From contig NJBN01000007.1 in NCBI GenBank assembly GCA_005223185.1, forward strand, positions 1 through 64,000: 64,000 bases of DNA, in the 5' to 3' direction. Within the stretch, counting starts at the first letter, position 1. Every line of letters starts with the position of its first letter. The notes under the pieces were generated by a model that searched no databases, had not been told where the DNA came from, and saw only the letters and a program-made list of their open reading frames with translations. The stretch is from a candidate division LCP-89 bacterium B3_LCP. GTDB lineage: Bacteria > Electryoneota > B3-LCP. The translations under genes were made by a program, and so were the position numbers. Positions 15,616 through 57,697 of this stretch are shown one piece after another.

Positions 15616-16953
15616 TTATTTCACCAACAACAGTTTTTGAGTTAACGAACCATGGGTTGAATTGAGGTTCGCAAAGTAGATACCACTGGGAAGATTATGA
15701 GCGTCGAAAGTGGCATCGTAGGTTCCAGCTACCTTATAGCCATCCGCCAATCTTGCGACTTCACAGCCCTGGGTATCATAGATAATCAGCGTTACATAAC
15801 CTTCATCTGGTAGGCTGAAACTCAGGCTGGTTTGTGGATTGAATGGGTTGGGGTAATTCTGCATCAGTTGAAACTTATTAGCAATCCCGATGGTAACTGT
15901 AACCTCATCGGAGTAGGAGGTCGCACCGCTGATGTCAGTTTGCATAAGCTTGTAGGTGTAAGTGCCGTTCCCAACTTCATCCAGATAGCTATAAGATTGA
16001 GGTTCTTCTGTAGTTCCAGCGCCGGGGAGTGTCGCGATTTCAATGTTATTGCGCAGGATAGTCCAACTGTAACATTCGTTTTCGCTGGCAGTATTCCAGG
16101 TTAACAGCACCCCGCTCTCAGCGACGTTAGCATTAAATGCGGTTAATTCTACAGGTGTAGGTGCGCCAAGATCATAGTAGTTCAGGTTTTCATTGTCATA
16201 ATCCACGTTCCAGAGATAACCGCCCTCAACCGTTACTCCAGCGAGCCACGCAGGGACATAGGTAGGTGAGGAGTCCACGATTGTCCCTGTCATGGTGATC
16301 TGGTATAATGTGAATGTTTGTGAATCAGAATAGTACAAATGTCCATCGTAGTAAGTCAGTCCGCTGATATCCTGCGAAGGAACGGAAATTGTACCAACCT
16401 GAGCTCCAGTGTTGGGATCAATTTTGTAAATGGTATGTGAGCCTGGCGAACCTGTGTTCGTTCCGTAGTACAGATACTGACCATCCCAGGCAACTCCAGC
16501 CCAATAGGAAGAGTAGACGATTGGGAATGAAGTAACAACTGCTCCTGTCATCGGATCGACTTTACATATTACCGGTCCGCCAACATAGTCCGTAACCCAC
16601 AAATGACTGCCATCCCAGGTAATACCTCCCGGCCAAAGTGCAGGTGAATTTATGTGACCAACTATATTCCCGGTCATATCAACCTTATAGATGTACGGAT
16701 CACCTACTCCAGCGCTCCATCTCGGTATCCAGAAATATTGACCATCGAAGGCCAACCCCGTTGGATTAGCAATGAGGAGAGGGCAAAATCCTACCCAGGG
16801 CCAATCGCATGGTTGTGGATTAGAGGGTTGTACGACACGTTCTTCCACCGCAAAGTACTGTCCGGCAGGTGGGACGCTAAGATTTTGTGCCAGCGCGCAT
16901 GATGTGAGAAAGATGAGTGTACACAAAATTACTACAAATTTCTTCATTTTCAT
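15616..16953 (-). CDS. Secreted beta-propeller-like protein with T9SS C-terminal sorting domain
   Basis: Signal peptide MKMKKFVVILCTLIFLTSCALA; repeated YY/W blades; C-terminus NYPNPFNPQTSLSF ... KLLLVK. Confidence 0.7.
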   Translation of the reverse strand: MKMKKFVVILCTLIFLTSCALAQNLSVPPAGQYFAVEERVVQPSNPQPCDWPWVGFCPLLIANPTGLAFDGQYFWIPRWSAGVGDPYIYKVDMTGNIVGHINSPALWPGGITWDGSHLWVTDYVGGPVICKVDPMTGAVVTSFPIVYSSYWAGVAWDGQYLYYGTNTGSPGSHTIYKIDPNTGAQVGTISVPSQDISGLTYYDGHLYYSDSQTFTLYQITMTGTIVDSSPTYVPAWLAGVTVEGGYLWNVDYDNENLNYYDLGAPTPVELTAFNANVAESGVLLTWNTASENECYSWTILRNNIEIATLPGAGTTEEPQSYSYLDEVGNGTYTYKLMQTDISGATSYSDEVTVTIGIANKFQLMQNYPNPFNPQTSLSFSLPDEGYVTLIIYDTQGCEVARLADGYKVAGTYDATFDAHNLPSGIYFANLNSTHGSLTQKLLLVK

Positions 16954-17093
16954 ACCTCCGATTTTATTTCTTACCATAAAGATCGTTATCACGCAATATA
17001 TAAAGAATATCGGTAAGAGTCAAGCACTTTTTAAAAAGTCAGTAATTCCTATTATATCAATTACTTATAGCATGATATAAGTAACTCTTTTTA

Positions 17094-17149: not shown

Positions 17150-18184
17150 TCATTTAACCAATGTAATCTTCTGCGTCTGCTGAACGTTGCCAACGGTTAA
17201 CCTGGCAAAGTAATTACCACTGGAAAGACTGGCAGCATCGAAAGCAGCCCGATAGGAACCAGGCATCATCCAGCCATCCTGCAAATTAGCAATCATACTC
17301 CCCTGAGCATCATAAATTACCAGAGACACATTGCCTGCTTTGGGCAGATCGAAATCGAAGTTCGTATTTGGATTGAAGGGATTGGGATACGCGGGTGCCA
17401 ACGAGATTTCAACTGGCAAATTGATCTGACCTGGCAATTCCTGAATTCCTGTCATACCAGTAGTTCTGTGGAAGTAACCAGTAGTAAAATTGGGATTTGT
17501 CTCATCTATATTAGAGATAAGGAAGACCTGCCCCTCGCCATTCTGTGTGAGATAAATATATTGCCAGGTCTCAAGGGAACTCAATGGAATCCCGCTCACG
17601 ACAGTCCAGCTCATTATATGCATCTGTAGCCTCAGGCAGCTATAGGAGCCCATTGCATCTGTCACTGTGCCCCAGGCATCCACAACCCCCCAAGTTGTGT
17701 CAACTTGAGAATTTCCGGGAATGCCAAAATCGAGTTCGGTAACTCCCCACCACTCATCGTTGTAGGTCATGGGGAAACTATTGGGCAATTCCAGTATTGT
17801 GATATTTACAGCGGTTCCACCAGCTGCACTCCCTAAATATTGGTGATTACTTGCCGTTGTCTCATAATACTGGTAAAAGTCTGGCGTACCAGAATACCAA
17901 GTTGCATGGTTGGCATTAGGATAGCTTGCAGCGTATGGAGTACTGGCTGGTGTGACCCAGTTTTCATCCCATGAGTCGGGAGCTGACATGCTGGTAAAAT
18001 TCCAGCTTTGGTTTGGTCCAGAAGCTCCAGGATCAACCGTAACAGGATTATAAGTGTTTCCTGCCCGGTGAATAGTTGTCCCTGGATCAATTGGCAAATC
18101 TGATGTGTTAACGGTTATCTGTCCCAAAGATACTGATGCAATCAGCAGTGATAGGATGATCGTAATTCTTAAACGATTTAACAT
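17150..18184 (-). CDS. Secreted protein with T9SS C-terminal sorting domain
   Basis: Signal peptide; C-terminus AYPNPFNPNTNFDF ... KITLVK; start set at the ATG after RBS ggaggtgg. Confidence 0.7.
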   Translation of the reverse strand: MLNRLRITIILSLLIASVSLGQITVNTSDLPIDPGTTIHRAGNTYNPVTVDPGASGPNQSWNFTSMSAPDSWDENWVTPASTPYAASYPNANHATWYSGTPDFYQYYETTASNHQYLGSAAGGTAVNITILELPNSFPMTYNDEWWGVTELDFGIPGNSQVDTTWGVVDAWGTVTDAMGSYSCLRLQMHIMSWTVVSGIPLSSLETWQYIYLTQNGEGQVFLISNIDETNPNFTTGYFHRTTGMTGIQELPGQINLPVEISLAPAYPNPFNPNTNFDFDLPKAGNVSLVIYDAQGSMIANLQDGWMMPGSYRAAFDAASLSSGNYFARLTVGNVQQTQKITLVK

Positions 18185-18319
18185 TTCCACCTCCGTGAGT
18201 TGTACGCATTTTCAGTATATTTCATGTATTTAGAAAGCTACATAATAACAATGATAATGTCAAGAGAATTCTATGGGATTCCCTGCAAATGATTTAGCAG
18301 GTTTATTACAACGACTCAA

Positions 18320-19534
18320 TCAGGTTATGCTCAAAGCAGGGATTTTATGCTTTTTACCGATTTCGGCAGCCTCCTCTCCTATATGAACGATAGCTGTGAT
18401 GTCGTTTTTATCGAGTTTATTCAATTCAATATTGCCATGTACACGCCACTCTCTCTCCTTTGTCCAGTCCTGTTTTCCCGAACCAGCCATCTGAAAGAAG
18501 GAGCGGTCGCCTTCACTTAAGGAATCATACTTAGCAATGTCGCCGTATAGCGCTGGTCTAGCGCCCAACGCCTCCAGTCTCGACCTCTTGATGGCTATAC
18601 CATAAGGCTCAAATGTCCAGCGTCTTAAGCCCACTCGCCACCTGATCAATTTCGACAGATCTTCCGGTGGCCTGGCAGTGAAAGGGACCACGGCATATCC
18701 ACCGCGTATCATTCTGGTGGAAGCGCGAATTACTTTTTCTGAAAAGATGCGCATGAGCGTTTCCATTCCTTGATTGTCAGATGGTTTACTCTCCATCATA
18801 CGCCCGAAATGTTCACATCTCTTCTCATCGGGCCAGGGACCTACGCAGGAACGCGTCCAATGGATCAGATACTCCTCTGGCTTGTACCATTCTGGTAACG
18901 CAATTCTCTCAGGTAGTTTAGGCCTTCTGTTTGGAGGGGATTTCTTATATTGAACTTCGAGTTCCCTGGAAATATCAGTTTCTGGCAGTTCCTCATGAGA
19001 AAGATATCTTTCGAAATTGCCCCCCGGTCGTATGGAGTTTTTGATAAGTCGCTGGCTTAAGGCGAAAACCCAGTTATCCCGCAGAGCATTGGTCTCGGTA
19101 TGCTTCATACTTCTCCTTATAACCAAAGGACGAATTGCTAAGGTTTTAGCATCTTCCAGACCTAGACCAATTATAGCTTTGGTGCGCAGAACGTTGAAAT
19201 TCTGAGCACTACCCGGAGGGAATATCAGAATTATGGGAAGACCGATTCTATTTCCCGCCCATGTCAGGAAATCCCAGGAAGTTGTGCCTAAGCTTGTTAC
19301 CAGGACGTTATTGCGCAAATCCTCGCTGCGAAGAGAGTTGAGTGTGTTGGCTATCCACTCATCGTGTTTATTCATGCGCGGTGACTGGCGGGAATTCAAG
19401 ATGGTAAATCGGCTTTTTTTAAGAAGATCAGTGGGACCGCAGAGGACGATAGGTGAGGATTCTTGAAGGAAAAAAGGGTGTGGTATTACAGCAGGGAAGT
19501 CATTCTGACTCATGCAGAACGCAAGCTTGTGCAT
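18320..19534 (-). CDS. Hypothetical protein with a divergent DprA/Smf-like (SLOG superfamily) Rossmann domain and an uncharacterised C-terminal domain
   Basis: Residues ~40-110 (FTILNSRQSP ... NVLVTSLGTTSWDFLTWAGNRIGLPIILIFPPG) follow the DprA strand-helix-strand pattern but lack GxARGID; the C-terminal half (DWTKEREWRVHGNIEL) has no recognisable family. Confidence 0.45.
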   Translation of the reverse strand: MHKLAFCMSQNDFPAVIPHPFFLQESSPIVLCGPTDLLKKSRFTILNSRQSPRMNKHDEWIANTLNSLRSEDLRNNVLVTSLGTTSWDFLTWAGNRIGLPIILIFPPGSAQNFNVLRTKAIIGLGLEDAKTLAIRPLVIRRSMKHTETNALRDNWVFALSQRLIKNSIRPGGNFERYLSHEELPETDISRELEVQYKKSPPNRRPKLPERIALPEWYKPEEYLIHWTRSCVGPWPDEKRCEHFGRMMESKPSDNQGMETLMRIFSEKVIRASTRMIRGGYAVVPFTARPPEDLSKLIRWRVGLRRWTFEPYGIAIKRSRLEALGARPALYGDIAKYDSLSEGDRSFFQMAGSGKQDWTKEREWRVHGNIELNKLDKNDITAIVHIGEEAAEIGKKHKIPALSIT

Positions 19535-19589: not shown

Positions 19590-19750
19590 GGTATTTTCAT
19601 TAGTTATGCTGCCAACTCCCTGCAGTTGGCAGCACTGCCTCAGAATCAATTCTGAGGCTTAAACTGATTCAAGAACACTGAAGTGATCTTCTTAGCGTCC
19701 TACTTTAGTGGGACAGCATTTTTATAGCTCGGGAATTCATTCCCATGTCT
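19590..19750. repeat. Mosaic palindromic repeat, copy abutting the tmRNA 3' end (E-like hairpins, B, C)
   Basis: gctgccaactccctgcagttggcagc; gcctcagaatcaattctgaggc; gcgtcctactttagtgggacagc; cgggaattcattccc ends 8 nt from the tmRNA 3' terminus. Confidence 0.65.
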
Positions 19751-19757
19751 AACTTTG

Positions 19758-20114
19758 TGGAGACGGCGGGAATCGAACCCGCGTCCGAAATAGTGACCGA
19801 AGGACCCGCTACAGGCTTAGTCGCTGTTTAGTTCTCGCTAACCATCAAATCCAGCGACAGATCAGATGGGAAGCCAGCCTCGGAATTCTCACGTCAGGCA
19901 TTGAGGCGCTGCTTGACGCCAGCCCATCATTATGACGCCCGCATCCCAACTCGATGGGCAAGAATCGGGTCGGACGTAGCCGCTTCTTTATTAAGCAGCT
20001 AAGGCATAGCCGTGATTATCGGCATTTGTGATTGTGGCGGGTTTATACGGGGTCACGCCATCCCCGACCTGCTGATCCAGCTTCCTCCTATCCCGTCGAA
20101 ACCAAGTCGTCCCC
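19758..20114 (-). ncRNA. ssrA: tmRNA (SsrA)
   Basis: 5' GGGGACGACTTGGTTTCGACGGGAT and 3' GGTTCGATTCCCGCCGTCTCCAC(A); acceptor stem includes the G3-U pair; internal tag reading frame ...ADNHGYALAA then TAA TAA; about 357 nt. Confidence 0.9.
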
Positions 20115-20312: not shown

Positions 20313-21731
20313 ATGCACATTAGAAACAGAATGATCACAGTGATCATAGGTTGCTGCCTGTTATTGGCAGCGGGGATCCCGTTGCAGACAGGTTACGCTT
20401 ACACCCACACAGTTTTAGTGGAAGAAGCAACTGCTACCTGGTGCGGCTACTGCCCCAGTCATGTATCGGCTCTTGATGAGATGTACTCTTCGGGGCTCTA
20501 TGATTTCTACTATGTTACGCTTGTAACCGACATGAATACTTATGCTTACAATCGAGTTATCGGTGAATTAGGTGTAGGTGGCTATCCGACTTCTTTGGGC
20601 GACGGTGGATACCAGCAGGTCGTCGGTTGGGTACCGAACAGTTCATCCATGATCAACATGGTCAACAATTGTGGCAATCGTGCAGTCGCAGATATCGATC
20701 TTAATCTGGGCGTCACCTGGGATGGAAATGCACAGATCAGTATAGATCTCGATGTGATCAATAACGATCCATCCATGTACTTAGGACATCTGCACGCGTA
20801 TGTAACAGAAAAAGATTCCCGCTGGTACGTCTCAGGCAATCAGTATCACTTTGCCATGATCGGCGATTATGCCTTAAATGAAGATATCTTCGTTGCCGCA
20901 GGCGGCACTGCACAATATTCAACCACCTGGAACGGTAACACCTATGGATTCGGCGATATCGTTCCCGAAAATATCACAGTCATCGTTGCAGTGTTCAGTG
21001 GTGGAAATGTCTGGACAGATGAAACAGTAGCTATGCAGCCCGGTCTTCCGGTTGGCGACGTAACTGTTACTCTGACACCTTACGGCACACCTATCGTAAT
21101 TCCGGCTAACGGTGGTGCTTTCGATTTCAACATTGCGGTAACCAACAATGAAACTTCACCCTGGTCATTTGCAGTCTGGACGGACGTTACTCTGCCAAAC
21201 TCATCCATCTTCGGTCCCATTATCGGGCCGTTGACAATTACCATACCGGCAACAACCACCATCAATCGTGACCGTTCTCAGAGCATTCCTGGTGGAGCTC
21301 CTGCAGGTACTTATTCCTACAACGCCTATGTAGGCAACTACCCGGATGATATCTGGAACTCTGATACCTTCACTTTTGAAAAATCTACTGTTGGCGATGG
21401 GTCTGATTTCATTGGGGAATGGATAACTTCCGGTGATTCATTCACTACTGGAAATGTAGCATCTGTAGAAGATATTACTTTACTACAAAACTACCCCAAT
21501 CCCTTCAACCCAGAAACAACTATCAGCTACATCATACCGGAAGCAACTGATGTAAACCTCACTGTTTATGACGTAAGCGGTCGGCAGGTCGCAGAATTAG
21601 TTAGCGGCTACCGGAATGCCGGTCATCACGACGTAACCTGGGATGCTTCTTCCCTATCGGCTGGTGTTTACATATATCGTCTATCGGCTGGTGAGTTCAA
21701 CGCCAGTGGAAAGATGGTGCTTCTCAAGTAA
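20313..21731 (+). CDS. Secreted protein with N-terminal thioredoxin-like CxxC domain and T9SS C-terminal sorting domain
   Basis: Strong RBS aaaggag; signal peptide; EEATATWCGYCPSH motif; C-terminus QNYPNPFNPETTISY ... KMVLLK. Confidence 0.7.
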   Translation: MHIRNRMITVIIGCCLLLAAGIPLQTGYAYTHTVLVEEATATWCGYCPSHVSALDEMYSSGLYDFYYVTLVTDMNTYAYNRVIGELGVGGYPTSLGDGGYQQVVGWVPNSSSMINMVNNCGNRAVADIDLNLGVTWDGNAQISIDLDVINNDPSMYLGHLHAYVTEKDSRWYVSGNQYHFAMIGDYALNEDIFVAAGGTAQYSTTWNGNTYGFGDIVPENITVIVAVFSGGNVWTDETVAMQPGLPVGDVTVTLTPYGTPIVIPANGGAFDFNIAVTNNETSPWSFAVWTDVTLPNSSIFGPIIGPLTITIPATTTINRDRSQSIPGGAPAGTYSYNAYVGNYPDDIWNSDTFTFEKSTVGDGSDFIGEWITSGDSFTTGNVASVEDITLLQNYPNPFNPETTISYIIPEATDVNLTVYDVSGRQVAELVSGYRNAGHHDVTWDASSLSAGVYIYRLSAGEFNASGKMVLLK

Positions 21732-22387: not shown

Positions 22388-23118
22388 CTAATCCTGACAT
22401 TTTCGCACGATAAAGGTTGAATCTGTTCTGCGCCGGATACCAGCAAGGCGCATGAGTGTTCCGATACGTTTCTCTTTAATTCCTCTATCCACTAAGTGGC
22501 ATCGTGTCATGCCAGAGATCATGTCTTCAAGCTGCTCATTCGTGAAATATGATACAACAGGTGCGCCGATGTTATTCCATTTGCCTAGAATCTGGATCCG
22601 GTTGGATGTAACTTTTGTCACGAACCTCTTAACATAAAACACGACTCCCATCATGAAGACAGGATAGAAGACAGGCTCTATAATAATCAGATGACCACCG
22701 GGTTTTAACAAATTCAAGGCATGAGTGACGGCTAATGATGCATTGTCCCGAGATTGCCTTCGCGTTTTACCTACCAAGTGATGGAGAACCGCTGCCAAGA
22801 TGGCAAAATCAAATTTTCAGTAATACTCGCCGCGAAATCATAATCCAGTATGGATCCCCGGAGGGTATGGCACGTGAGTTTTTGTTGCATTATTTCGAGG
22901 TAATTTTCGCTTATGTCGATTCCAGAGAAACACTCCATAGGAGTGTTATCCTTGAAATATTTGAGGATATTACCTGTGCCGCAACCGATATCGATGAGAG
23001 AACTATCCGGCTGGCAGTGTCCATTGATAAATTTGCAAGCGTACTCAAGCCGTTCCACGGAATATTCCGGTGTAAGCACATCGAAATAATTTTTTGAAGC
23101 TCTGTCAAATGTTTCCAT
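22388..23118 (-). pseudogene. Class I SAM-dependent methyltransferase disrupted by a 29-nt insertion (frameshift)
   Basis: N-terminal ORF carries motif I LIDIGCGTGN and DYDF; the C-terminal ORF carries AILAAVLHHL ... LKPGGHLIIIEP in another frame; removing 22803..22831 restores DYDF-AILAAVLHHL in frame. Confidence 0.7.
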
Positions 23119-56545: not shown

Positions 56546-57697
56546 TCAGTTTTTCTTGATAGCAAACATTTTACCGGGTAGTTGAACCACCCAGCCTTTC
56601 ATTTCCAATCCTAAAAGGTCAGCCAGAACGGAATTAACCGGTATATCCATCTCTCTGGTCAACTGATCTATATGAATCGGATCAAACGATAGATACTTCG
56701 CAACTGCTTCTTCAGATGCGTTCAACTTAGGCAGCGGTGTAGAGACGTCCTTCCCTGCTTCACCGATGGCGGAAAGATTTATCTCCTGCAGGATATCATC
56801 TGCGCAGGTGACCAGACCGGCTCCCTCTTTTATCAACATGTGCGGTCCCACCGAACGCCTGTCTTCGACGTTTCCCGGCAGAGCGAAAACGTCCCGGTTC
56901 TGATCCAGTGCAAATTTTGCCGTAATCAAAGCCCCGGAATCCCTTCCGCCCTGAACCACTAACACAGCCTCACTTAAACCACTGATGATTCGGTTTCTTC
57001 GGGGAAAGAAGCGCGCATCCGGCTTGACGCCGGGTAGAAATTCAGAAATTAAAGCGCCGTTTGATTCGATTTTTTCTGCAAGCGATTTATTTTCAGTGGG
57101 GTATATGCGGTCAATGCCGCAACCGAACACTGCATAGGTTCTGCCGTTTGCCTGAAGTGCGCCCCCATGCGCTGAAGAATCGATTCCCCTTGCCATGCCA
57201 CTGACTACACCCACTCCACGTGCCGCTAACTGTTCCGCTATGCTATGCCCCTGAGAAATGCCGTAAGCGGTGGGAGTTCTGGTCCCCACTATGGCAATGC
57301 ACTTTTCGGCAACATCCGGTAGACTACCCCGTACGAAAAGCAGCGCTGGCGGGTCATGTATCTCCTTGAGACGATGAGGATACCGTTCATCCCAGATGGA
57401 CACCACGGAAGCGCCACAGGATTGCAGCTTCTCCAGCAGTTTTTCTCCAGTTCCATCTGGTGAAGTTTGTGAAATCGCAGCGGCCGTGTTGGTATCGACT
57501 CCAGGCACGCTGCAAATAGATTTCTCTGTGGCTTTAAAAACATCAACAGGACCGCCAAAGGCTTTCAGCAGAGCCCGAAAACGAGCTGATCCAACTCCTT
57601 CAACGCTCCATAGAGCCAAAGTTCCCGGAAGATCTTCTTCAATCGCCTTACCCGGGGAGACCCCATGACTGAAGAGTGAAGATTGATCTCTACTCAT
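56546..57697 (-). CDS. dprA: DNA processing protein A (DprA/Smf)
   Basis: IVGTRTPTAYG ... VVSGMARGIDSSAHGGAL ... RNRIISGLS Rossmann domain. Confidence 0.85.
   Translation of the reverse strand: MSRDQSSLFSHGVSPGKAIEEDLPGTLALWSVEGVGSARFRALLKAFGGPVDVFKATEKSICSVPGVDTNTAAAISQTSPDGTGEKLLEKLQSCGASVVSIWDERYPHRLKEIHDPPALLFVRGSLPDVAEKCIAIVGTRTPTAYGISQGHSIAEQLAARGVGVVSGMARGIDSSAHGGALQANGRTYAVFGCGIDRIYPTENKSLAEKIESNGALISEFLPGVKPDARFFPRRNRIISGLSEAVLVVQGGRDSGALITAKFALDQNRDVFALPGNVEDRRSVGPHMLIKEGAGLVTCADDILQEINLSAIGEAGKDVSTPLPKLNASEEAVAKYLSFDPIHIDQLTREMDIPVNSVLADLLGLEMKGWVVQLPGKMFAIKKN

Follow-up and report, generated by a model that had tools for sequence, protein, structure and literature searches.

In this study we describe a gene of the candidate division LCP-89 bacterium B3_LCP, located in a 64,000-nucleotide stretch of its genome (GenBank assembly GCA_005223185.1, contig NJBN01000007.1, positions 1 to 64,000 of the forward strand; henceforth referred to as the 'window'), and the protein family to which its 404-residue product belongs. 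We are confident that members of this family share a constant two-domain architecture, in which a SLOG domain of the DprA branch is followed by a domain with an ADP-ribosyltransferase (ART) fold of the AbiGi/DarT type. This fusion is a new architecture and a divergent subfamily of known kinds; our literature search found no described DprA-ART fusion, and earlier SLOG and ART surveys may mention one. We see an even chance that the protein is a two-domain enzyme, namely an NAD+-dependent ART aimed at single-stranded DNA (ssDNA) by its DprA-like module.

A family with two conserved domains

The open reading frame (ORF) and the peptide strings quoted from it in an earlier note on this DNA are present in the ORF list of the window. 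A database search returned an identical deposited protein (CEE37_10480, hypothetical protein, candidate division LCP-89 bacterium B3_LCP; 100% identity) together with 72 further homologues, with E-values down to 1e-155 and 27 of them at 45–57% identity, and the reading frame is therefore a conserved coding sequence and not a chance ORF. An alignment of 55 full-length homologues (alignment A1) contains two conserved blocks, one N-terminal (LNSRQS, VSSxGxxTWE and RD(R)..LAD..PVSxRPGGN) and one C-terminal (YLIHWTRS..GPWP, TLxRIL, VVxFT, RWTFEPYGIA, RPVxYG, FFQ and DWxxExEWR). A full-length AlphaFold2 model built on this alignment reached a mean predicted local distance difference test score (pLDDT) of 92.1 and a predicted template modelling score (pTM) of 0.87.

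Local hidden Markov models of each domain detected both domains in 72 of the 73 first-round matches. Among a further 144 representatives the N-terminal domain was found in 129 (114 at E<1e-5), and the other 15, in which it was not matched, are mostly short and fragment-like. The C-terminal domain sits C-terminally in all of the 150 best matches (each E<1e-60). When its profile was run against all representative proteins, with family clusters defined at 50% identity, 2809 clusters passed E≤1e-3, of which 1421 also passed E≤1e-30. Every source-given name of a family member is 'hypothetical protein', and a second search with the C-terminal domain profile returned, among the best 120 matches listed, only shorter (≤360 residues) 'hypothetical' proteins. 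Most members outside the clade of the query are 450–620 residues long (the P0075–P0217 set, for example P0088, P0168 and P0201); they carry an extra N-terminal extension of 50–140 residues before the DprA-like domain, which has no Pfam match. Besides such extensions, other clades also have extra insertions in the linker region.

One conserved peptide pattern was matched in 117 of 185,579 species genomes, and the positive taxa include LCP-89, Zixibacteria, Ignavibacteria, Thermodesulfobacteriota, some Alphaproteobacteria, Gemmatimonadales and Spirochaetes. Named strains with a family member are Desulfacinum infernum DSM 9756 (Thermodesulfobacteriota; locus L027) and Rhodopirellula maiorica SM1 (protein P0317). 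Searches with tblastn found no homologue in phage records and one marginal match in plasmid records, a stand-alone C-terminal domain protein from Streptomyces. This 262-residue 'hypothetical protein' (locus L093, 3794–4582, + strand; Streptomyces sp. NBC_01201 plasmid NZ_CP108566.1) is clearly homologous to the C-terminal domain only (hhalign probability 97.5%, E 5.5e-12). No Pfam family matches it, and its gene adjoins a tyrosine recombinase (integrase) fragment and a transposase, so that the ART-like module also occurs unfused and in a mobile context.

The N-terminal domain is of the DprA/ShosA branch

The AlphaFold2 model places a strand at residues 41–47 (FTILNSR), a helix at 59–69, a strand at 76–81 (VLVTSL), a helix at 85–96 and a strand at 101–104 (IILI). 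The alternating strand-helix DprA/SLOG pattern that the earlier note had described is thus seen in the model at residues 41–104, and the note's inference of the fold was correct. Four motifs mark the domain, N47-S48-R49 (DprA GSR), S81-x-G83 (in place of SGxAxGID), R152-D153 (DprA RNR) and R169-x-G-G172-N. As had also been noted before, the GxARGID motif is absent: the query reads T80-S-L-G-T-T-S-W-D where the genuine dprA of the window reads SGMARGID, and the family consensus at the SGxAxGID position is VSSxGxxxY/W. Conservation was counted in an alignment (A3) of 116 representatives clustered at 50% identity, each at most about 34% identical to the query. The GSR-type Ser-Arg pair, which aligns with GSR/GTR, is near-invariant (S48 in 114/116, R49 in 107/116), and D153 is conserved in more than 95% of representatives. 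The arginine of the GSR motif is needed for ssDNA binding in HpDprA (R52) and in ShosA (R139) (PMC12961424), and it is retained in the query as R49.

The link to DprA at the sequence level is weak for the query and clear for the family. The Pfam DprA model (PF02481) does not match the query even at E≤10. Among 92 diverse relatives it matches 15 at E≤0.01 (best 4.1e-11), and relative P0053 scores above the gathering cutoff (32.3 bits vs 29.6). Scanned with PADLOC, the same 92 relatives gave matches to the profiles of the DprA-like antitoxins ShosA (9 relatives, best 1.4e-10) and PsyrA (14 relatives, best 2.8e-8), which fall on the N-terminal domain. A search of PDB sequences with the profile of the domain had Streptococcus pneumoniae DprA as top match (E 0.015), with the whole domain aligned and with LnSRk paired with VGSRA and RDr with RNR. 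An hhalign comparison of the family with the single DprA sequence of the window gave a sensible alignment without statistical support (probability 0.7%).

DprA/Smf (PF02481) is a recombination mediator that loads RecA on incoming ssDNA. The query shares with it the Rossmann-like DprA/SLOG fold and the GSR arginine and differs from it in having no PF02481 match, no SGxAxGID motif, no N-terminal SAM domain and no C-terminal winged-helix domain. The window also holds a canonical dprA (56546..57697, - strand), whose product has the motifs SGMARGID and FPRRNRIISGLS; the query protein is therefore not the competence DprA, and the genome carries both a genuine DprA and a DprA-like fusion protein.

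The N-terminal domain is of the DprA/ShosA branch of the SLOG fold and is not one of the ligand-sensor SLOGs. This bears on the model of the earlier note, in which the SLOG domain would sense a nucleotide second messenger and thereby activate the effector at the C terminus, with the whole protein serving in an anti-phage conflict system. The SLOG domain of ThsA, the comparison for such a sensor, binds isomers of cyclic ADP-ribose (cADPR). Sensor SLOGs are not the closest structural neighbours of the query domain and no signal-generating enzyme is associated with it. The Pfam-annotated loci L001–L012 hold no gene for a phosphoribosyltransferase (PRTase), a TIR protein or a cyclase within 6 kb of the family gene. 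We consider a sensor role unlikely.

The C-terminal domain resembles ADP-ribosyltransferases

The C-terminal ~200 residues, which the earlier note could not place, can now be assigned to an ART-fold domain of the AbiGi/DarT type, and we take this domain to be a previously unrecognised ADP-ribosyltransferase-like domain, with the fold call being of moderate strength. The modelled domain has the split beta-sheet of the ART fold. Six of its residues (H225, Y330, W357, E360, E362 and R364) are invariant in all 116 representatives, and T227 (115/116), R228 (113/116), R277 (111/116), [S/C]284 (109/116), Y311 (100/116, plus 11 with Phe), G312 (113/116) and [T/S]286 (113/116) are nearly so. The motifs occur in the order H-x-T-R on the first strand, S-F-T on the second strand, Y311-G312 and E360-x-E362, and comprise candidate residues of an NAD+ pocket; as far as the sequence allows, this order fits the motif I/II/III layout of ARTs. 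What is known of ART families suggests that H225-W-T227-R228 is the NAD-binding motif.

Profile searches point to AbiGi, a component of the lactococcal AbiG abortive-infection system (PF10899). Its Pfam model matched 4 of 55 relatives, 6 of 10 divergent members and 6 of the 92 relatives (best 1.4e-5), and the matches with a listed score reach at most 20.1 bits, under the gathering score of 22.4 bits. The AbiGi profile of PADLOC matched 12 of the 92 relatives (best 6.3e-8), and AbiGi is the only effector-type profile that matches the C-terminal domain of family members. Only two Pfam families, DprA and AbiGi, were found at E≤0.01 among these relatives. AbiGi has been classed as ART-like and related to DarT and DUF2971, with ExE as motif III (bioRxiv 10.1101/2024.07.30.605764). 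The family shares with it the same motif order (H on strand 1, CFS/SFT, YG, ExEWR); unlike AbiGi, the query lies below every profile threshold and has no AbiGii partner gene. AbiGi itself is a stand-alone protein of lactococcal plasmids for which no biochemical activity is known (PMC13064643). Judged from these comparisons, the family is a distant sister group of AbiGi and not a member of it.

Structure and sequence comparisons of this domain with the PDB contributed little. Foldseek ranked DarTG first, but not significantly (E 0.049), which is a weakness, and was essentially uninformative; the C-terminal domain profile run against PDB sequences gave chance matches only (UL131A, cobinamide kinase). 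With the query itself, PADLOC returned only a marginal PDC-S31 match (E 0.0075), which other family members did not reinforce. DarT, the toxin of the DarTG toxin-antitoxin system (PF14487), is an ADP-ribosyltransferase of thymidine or guanosine in ssDNA. PF14487 matched neither the query nor any relative in scans of 54 (E≤1), 92 (E≤0.01) and 10 (E≤0.1) sequences, and the family has no sequence-level match to DarT; as motif III it carries ExE-W-R, the form seen in AbiGi and DUF2971. DarT acts as a toxin on its own, whereas the ART domain of the query is fused to a DprA-like domain and its context is chromosomal and syntenic; DarTG also includes the DarG-like macrodomain antitoxin, and no macrodomain gene lies within 6 kb of the query family in the annotated loci.

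Genomic context

On its own strand, the gene is immediately preceded by ssrA, which encodes transfer-messenger RNA (tmRNA); the two are 222 nt apart (Table 1). The order of genes in the window is moxR, rlmN, two genes for proteins sorted by the type IX secretion system (T9SS), the gene under study, ssrA and another T9SS-sorted protein gene, and beyond the latter lie a split methyltransferase, a ferredoxin and then ribonucleotide reductase, which was assigned from its ORF sequence and a Pfam-annotated orthologue in locus L003. The T9SS-sorted secreted proteins (Por_Secre_tail, E 1e-8 to 6e-10) are encoded at 15616..16992 (-), 17150..18190 (-) and 20313..21731 (+). The first two of these part the gene from rlmN, which it abuts directly in loci L001, L003, L014 and L016, and they therefore look like a local insertion or expansion. 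The S-adenosylmethionine-dependent methyltransferase (22388..23118, -) is seemingly split into two overlapping ORFs, of which 22771..23118 (115 residues) matches the N-terminal half of Methyltransf_25 and 22388..22798 (136 residues) has no Pfam match; it may be a frameshift or a pseudogene. The two hairpins between ssrA and the gene are probably the 3' terminator or processing structures of ssrA, and the terminator scan missed them because they have no T-run. A promoter-like site upstream of the start codon suggests that the gene may have its own promoter; the site is a consensus match only, from a scan whose yield was no higher than in shuffled sequence.

Table 1. Positions of the gene, its domains and motifs, and adjacent features in the window.
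Feature	Position	Strand	Basis
Complete gene, 404 aa plus stop codon	18320..19534	-	ORF list; 100% identical database protein; 72 homologues
Divergent DprA-type SLOG/Rossmann domain, ~residues 29-190	18965..19450	-	
Inter-domain linker, ~residues 191-220, poorly conserved	18875..18964	-	Alignment A1; model without regular secondary structure at 185-221
Predicted ADP-ribosyltransferase-fold domain, AbiGi/DarT type, residues 221-404	18323..18874	-	
Candidate ART motif I, strand beta-1, H225-W-T227-R228	18851..18862	-	Conservation in alignment A3; strand position from AlphaFold2 model
Candidate ART motif III (ExE), E360-R-E362-W-R364	18443..18457	-	E360, E362 and R364 each 116/116
tmRNA gene ssrA, tag peptide ADNHGYALAA	19755/19757..20114	-	ARAGORN; Rfam RF00023, 193 bits
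Two adjacent GC-rich hairpins, gcctcagaattgattctgaggc and gctgccaactgcagggagttggcagc, between ssrA and the gene	19608..19658	-	Read from sequence
Promoter-like site, ATGAAA-17-TATACT plus TG (extended -10), 38 nt ahead of the start codon	19572..19600	-	Consensus scan

The location beside ssrA had earlier been taken to fit accessory cargo. A single copy of the tmRNA 3' 23-mer is present in the 64-kb window, even with 3 mismatches allowed, so that there is no second tmRNA 3' end; no integrase is present; and the GC content (0.45–0.47) is like that of the flanks. In locus L003 the order is ribonucleotide reductase, ferredoxin, ssrA, the gene and, convergent to it, rlmN, moxR and DUF58. Directly upstream ssrA genes are also found in L013, L014 and L016 (coordinates 5590–5948 in L003, 242–600 in L013, 5175–5532 in L014 and 5273–5629 in L016), and every LCP-89-clade genome with enough upstream sequence has ssrA upstream on the same strand, with gaps from 53 nt (L003) to ~470 nt; at 53 nt, co-transcription with the tmRNA is possible. 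The tag peptides vary slightly within the clade (ADNHGYALAA, ADNYGYALAA, ADNNGYALAA and AENNGYALAA). Since relatives share the same backbone, the adjacency represents inherited synteny within the LCP-89 clade. L001 (51% identity) lacks it, and so do all more distant loci, be they from Zixibacteria, Ignavibacteria, Thermodesulfobacteriota, Planctomycetes or Spirochaetes. With no att repeat, no integrase, typical composition, ordinary neighbours and conserved synteny, we reject an ssrA-integrated genomic island, and the reading as cargo falls with it.

The position between ssrA and rlmN would reflect function if the protein were a housekeeping RNA-processing enzyme tied to tmRNA or rRNA biology, with an ART fold that, like Tpt1/KptA, removes 2'-phosphates or caps RNA ends with ADP-ribose, and with a DprA-like domain that binds structured or single-stranded RNA. 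However, ssrA adjacency is limited to one clade, the conserved H/R...ExE motifs differ from the H-H-h pattern of Tpt1 (PMC9967889), and the family is patchy and not universal (the 117 species genomes were found with one search pattern). We therefore regard an RNA-processing function as very improbable.

Neighbours were also clustered across 92 loci. No universal partner and no conserved second gene emerged, the frequent neighbours are clade-specific, and no defence gene was found among the clustered neighbours. The enrichment in defence islands for which the earlier note had proposed a survey is thus not seen, and the defence-island reading is rejected, given that only clade-specific housekeeping partners occur at these loci. 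In 10–13 Thermodesulfobacteriota loci the gene lies in a block of divergent comEC, a rodZ-like gene, a gene for a 115-residue protein, the gene itself and a prepilin peptidase gene. The block was seen in Desulfomonilaceae and Syntrophaceae (L026, L028, L033, L038, L046, L056, L061, L066, L071, L074, L086 and L090, also L008); the rodZ-like product is of the HTH_25/RodZ_C type, the prepilin peptidase belongs to A24, and the conserved 115-residue protein has no Pfam match. A functional link of the DprA-ART gene to the small protein and to these neighbours, which relate to competence and pili, is possible.

Discussion

In the mechanism that we favour, the gene product would be a cytoplasmic two-domain enzyme. 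Its N-terminal domain, a divergent SLOG of the DprA branch to which the ssDNA- and RecA-binding antitoxins ShosA and PsyrA/RqlI also belong, would bind single-stranded nucleic acid, most probably ssDNA, and this binding would position or gate the ART domain. The AbiGi/DarT-type C-terminal domain, in which the candidate NAD-binding and catalytic motifs (HxTR, [S/C]F[T/S], YG and ExE) are intact, would use NAD+ to ADP-ribosylate the bound nucleic acid, as DarT does with the bases of ssDNA (PMC9967889). The protein would in effect be a covalent fusion of a neutraliser of the ShosA/PsyrA type with an effector of the AbiGi/DarT type. Catalytic activity, the ssDNA substrate and a physiological role as a self-contained stress, defence or DNA-transaction function are all predicted, and candidate roles are defence, stress-induced growth control, DNA-uptake surveillance and housekeeping nucleic-acid modification.

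The nearest precedents are ShosTA and PsyrTA, in which a DprA-like antitoxin is paired with a ribosyl-transfer toxin (bioRxiv 10.1101/2022.05.11.491447; PMC11961720) and the DprA-like protein neutralises the toxin via ssDNA binding and RecA (PMC12961424, PMC11961720, bioRxiv 10.1101/2022.05.11.491447, PMC4670107); a ShosA-RecA interaction and a role of the C-terminal degron have also been described (PMC12961424, PMC11961720). In these systems an adjacent gene supplies the partner, a PRTase-domain toxin, as a protein of its own, whereas in the query the partner is an ART-fold domain of the same polypeptide, and no PRTase gene adjoins the gene in any locus examined. The query also differs from ShosA and PsyrA in that its SGxAxGID motif is replaced. 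PsyrA, also named RqlI, is the antitoxin of the PsyrTA/RqlHI defence toxin-antitoxin system.

Several observations weigh against an ssDNA-directed ART. The query has no profile match in Pfam, NCBIfam, PHROGs or PDB sequences. R152, the equivalent of the RNR arginine of DprA, is kept in only 70 of the 116 representatives. At position 284, where motif II begins, the clade of the query carries Pro (P-F-T) in place of Ser or Cys. Pfam names AbiGi an 'antitoxin', and an activity of AbiGi has never been demonstrated. The genomic contexts are housekeeping and syntenic and not defence islands, and loci L001–L012 contain no macrodomain, ARH or NADAR reversal gene within 6 kb. If a DNA-directed ART were left unchecked, toxicity would be expected. 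Both the housekeeping, syntenic surroundings and the missing reversal enzyme speak against a suicidal toxin of the classical kind.

Two of these observations, the Pro in motif II and the naming of AbiGi as an antitoxin and not an enzyme, would also suit a protein whose ART-like domain is catalytically dead or no transferase at all, that is, a DprA paralogue with a protein- or DNA-binding C-terminal domain acting, for example, in DNA uptake or recombination, and so would the Thermodesulfobacteriota loci in which the gene stands amid divergent comEC, rodZ-like and prepilin peptidase genes. That synteny with comEC and pilD is, however, confined to one clade, the presence of a canonical dprA in the same window shows that the protein is not the competence DprA, and the six C-terminal domain residues that are invariant in the 116 representatives, H225 and the two ExE glutamates among them, form a pattern that typifies active sites and not binding surfaces. 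A dead or non-transferase domain is in our judgement improbable.

Under the favoured reading of an ssDNA-directed transferase, the family may chemically tag DNA. A further-reaching form of it, which we advance tentatively and think somewhat unlikely, is a self-contained, vertically inherited DNA ADP-ribosylation system in which the DprA-type module recruits the DarT/AbiGi-like transferase to ssDNA and replaces a separate antitoxin. Its possible targets would be replication gaps and incoming or phage ssDNA, and the antitoxin would be replaced either by gating of catalysis or by recruitment of RecA to the adduct.

The study of nucleic-acid ADP-ribosylation is still young (DarT, pierisins, Tpt1 and PARPs acting on DNA ends), and DprA-like proteins have recently been shown to be type IV antitoxins (ShosA, PsyrA). 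At least 1400 clusters at 50% identity weld both modules in one polypeptide, with no annotation and no Pfam or NCBIfam model that covers the query, and the family is chromosomally stable and not island-borne. It offers a compact system for asking how ssDNA recognition couples to ADP-ribosyl transfer and how such an enzyme stays non-toxic without a macrodomain partner, and it predicts a specific substrate for the AbiGi-type ART domain, of which little is understood. Experiments look feasible with the named-strain hosts Desulfacinum infernum DSM 9756 and Rhodopirellula maiorica SM1. The family is relevant to researchers of ADP-ribosylation, toxin-antitoxin systems and phage defence, its function being predicted from sequence and its ART fold being a moderate call. 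If the further-reaching reading of a self-contained DNA ADP-ribosylation system is true, these proteins would be a fused counterpart of ShosTA, PsyrTA and DarTG and would represent physiological, non-suicidal ADP-ribosylation of DNA bases in several poorly studied phyla.
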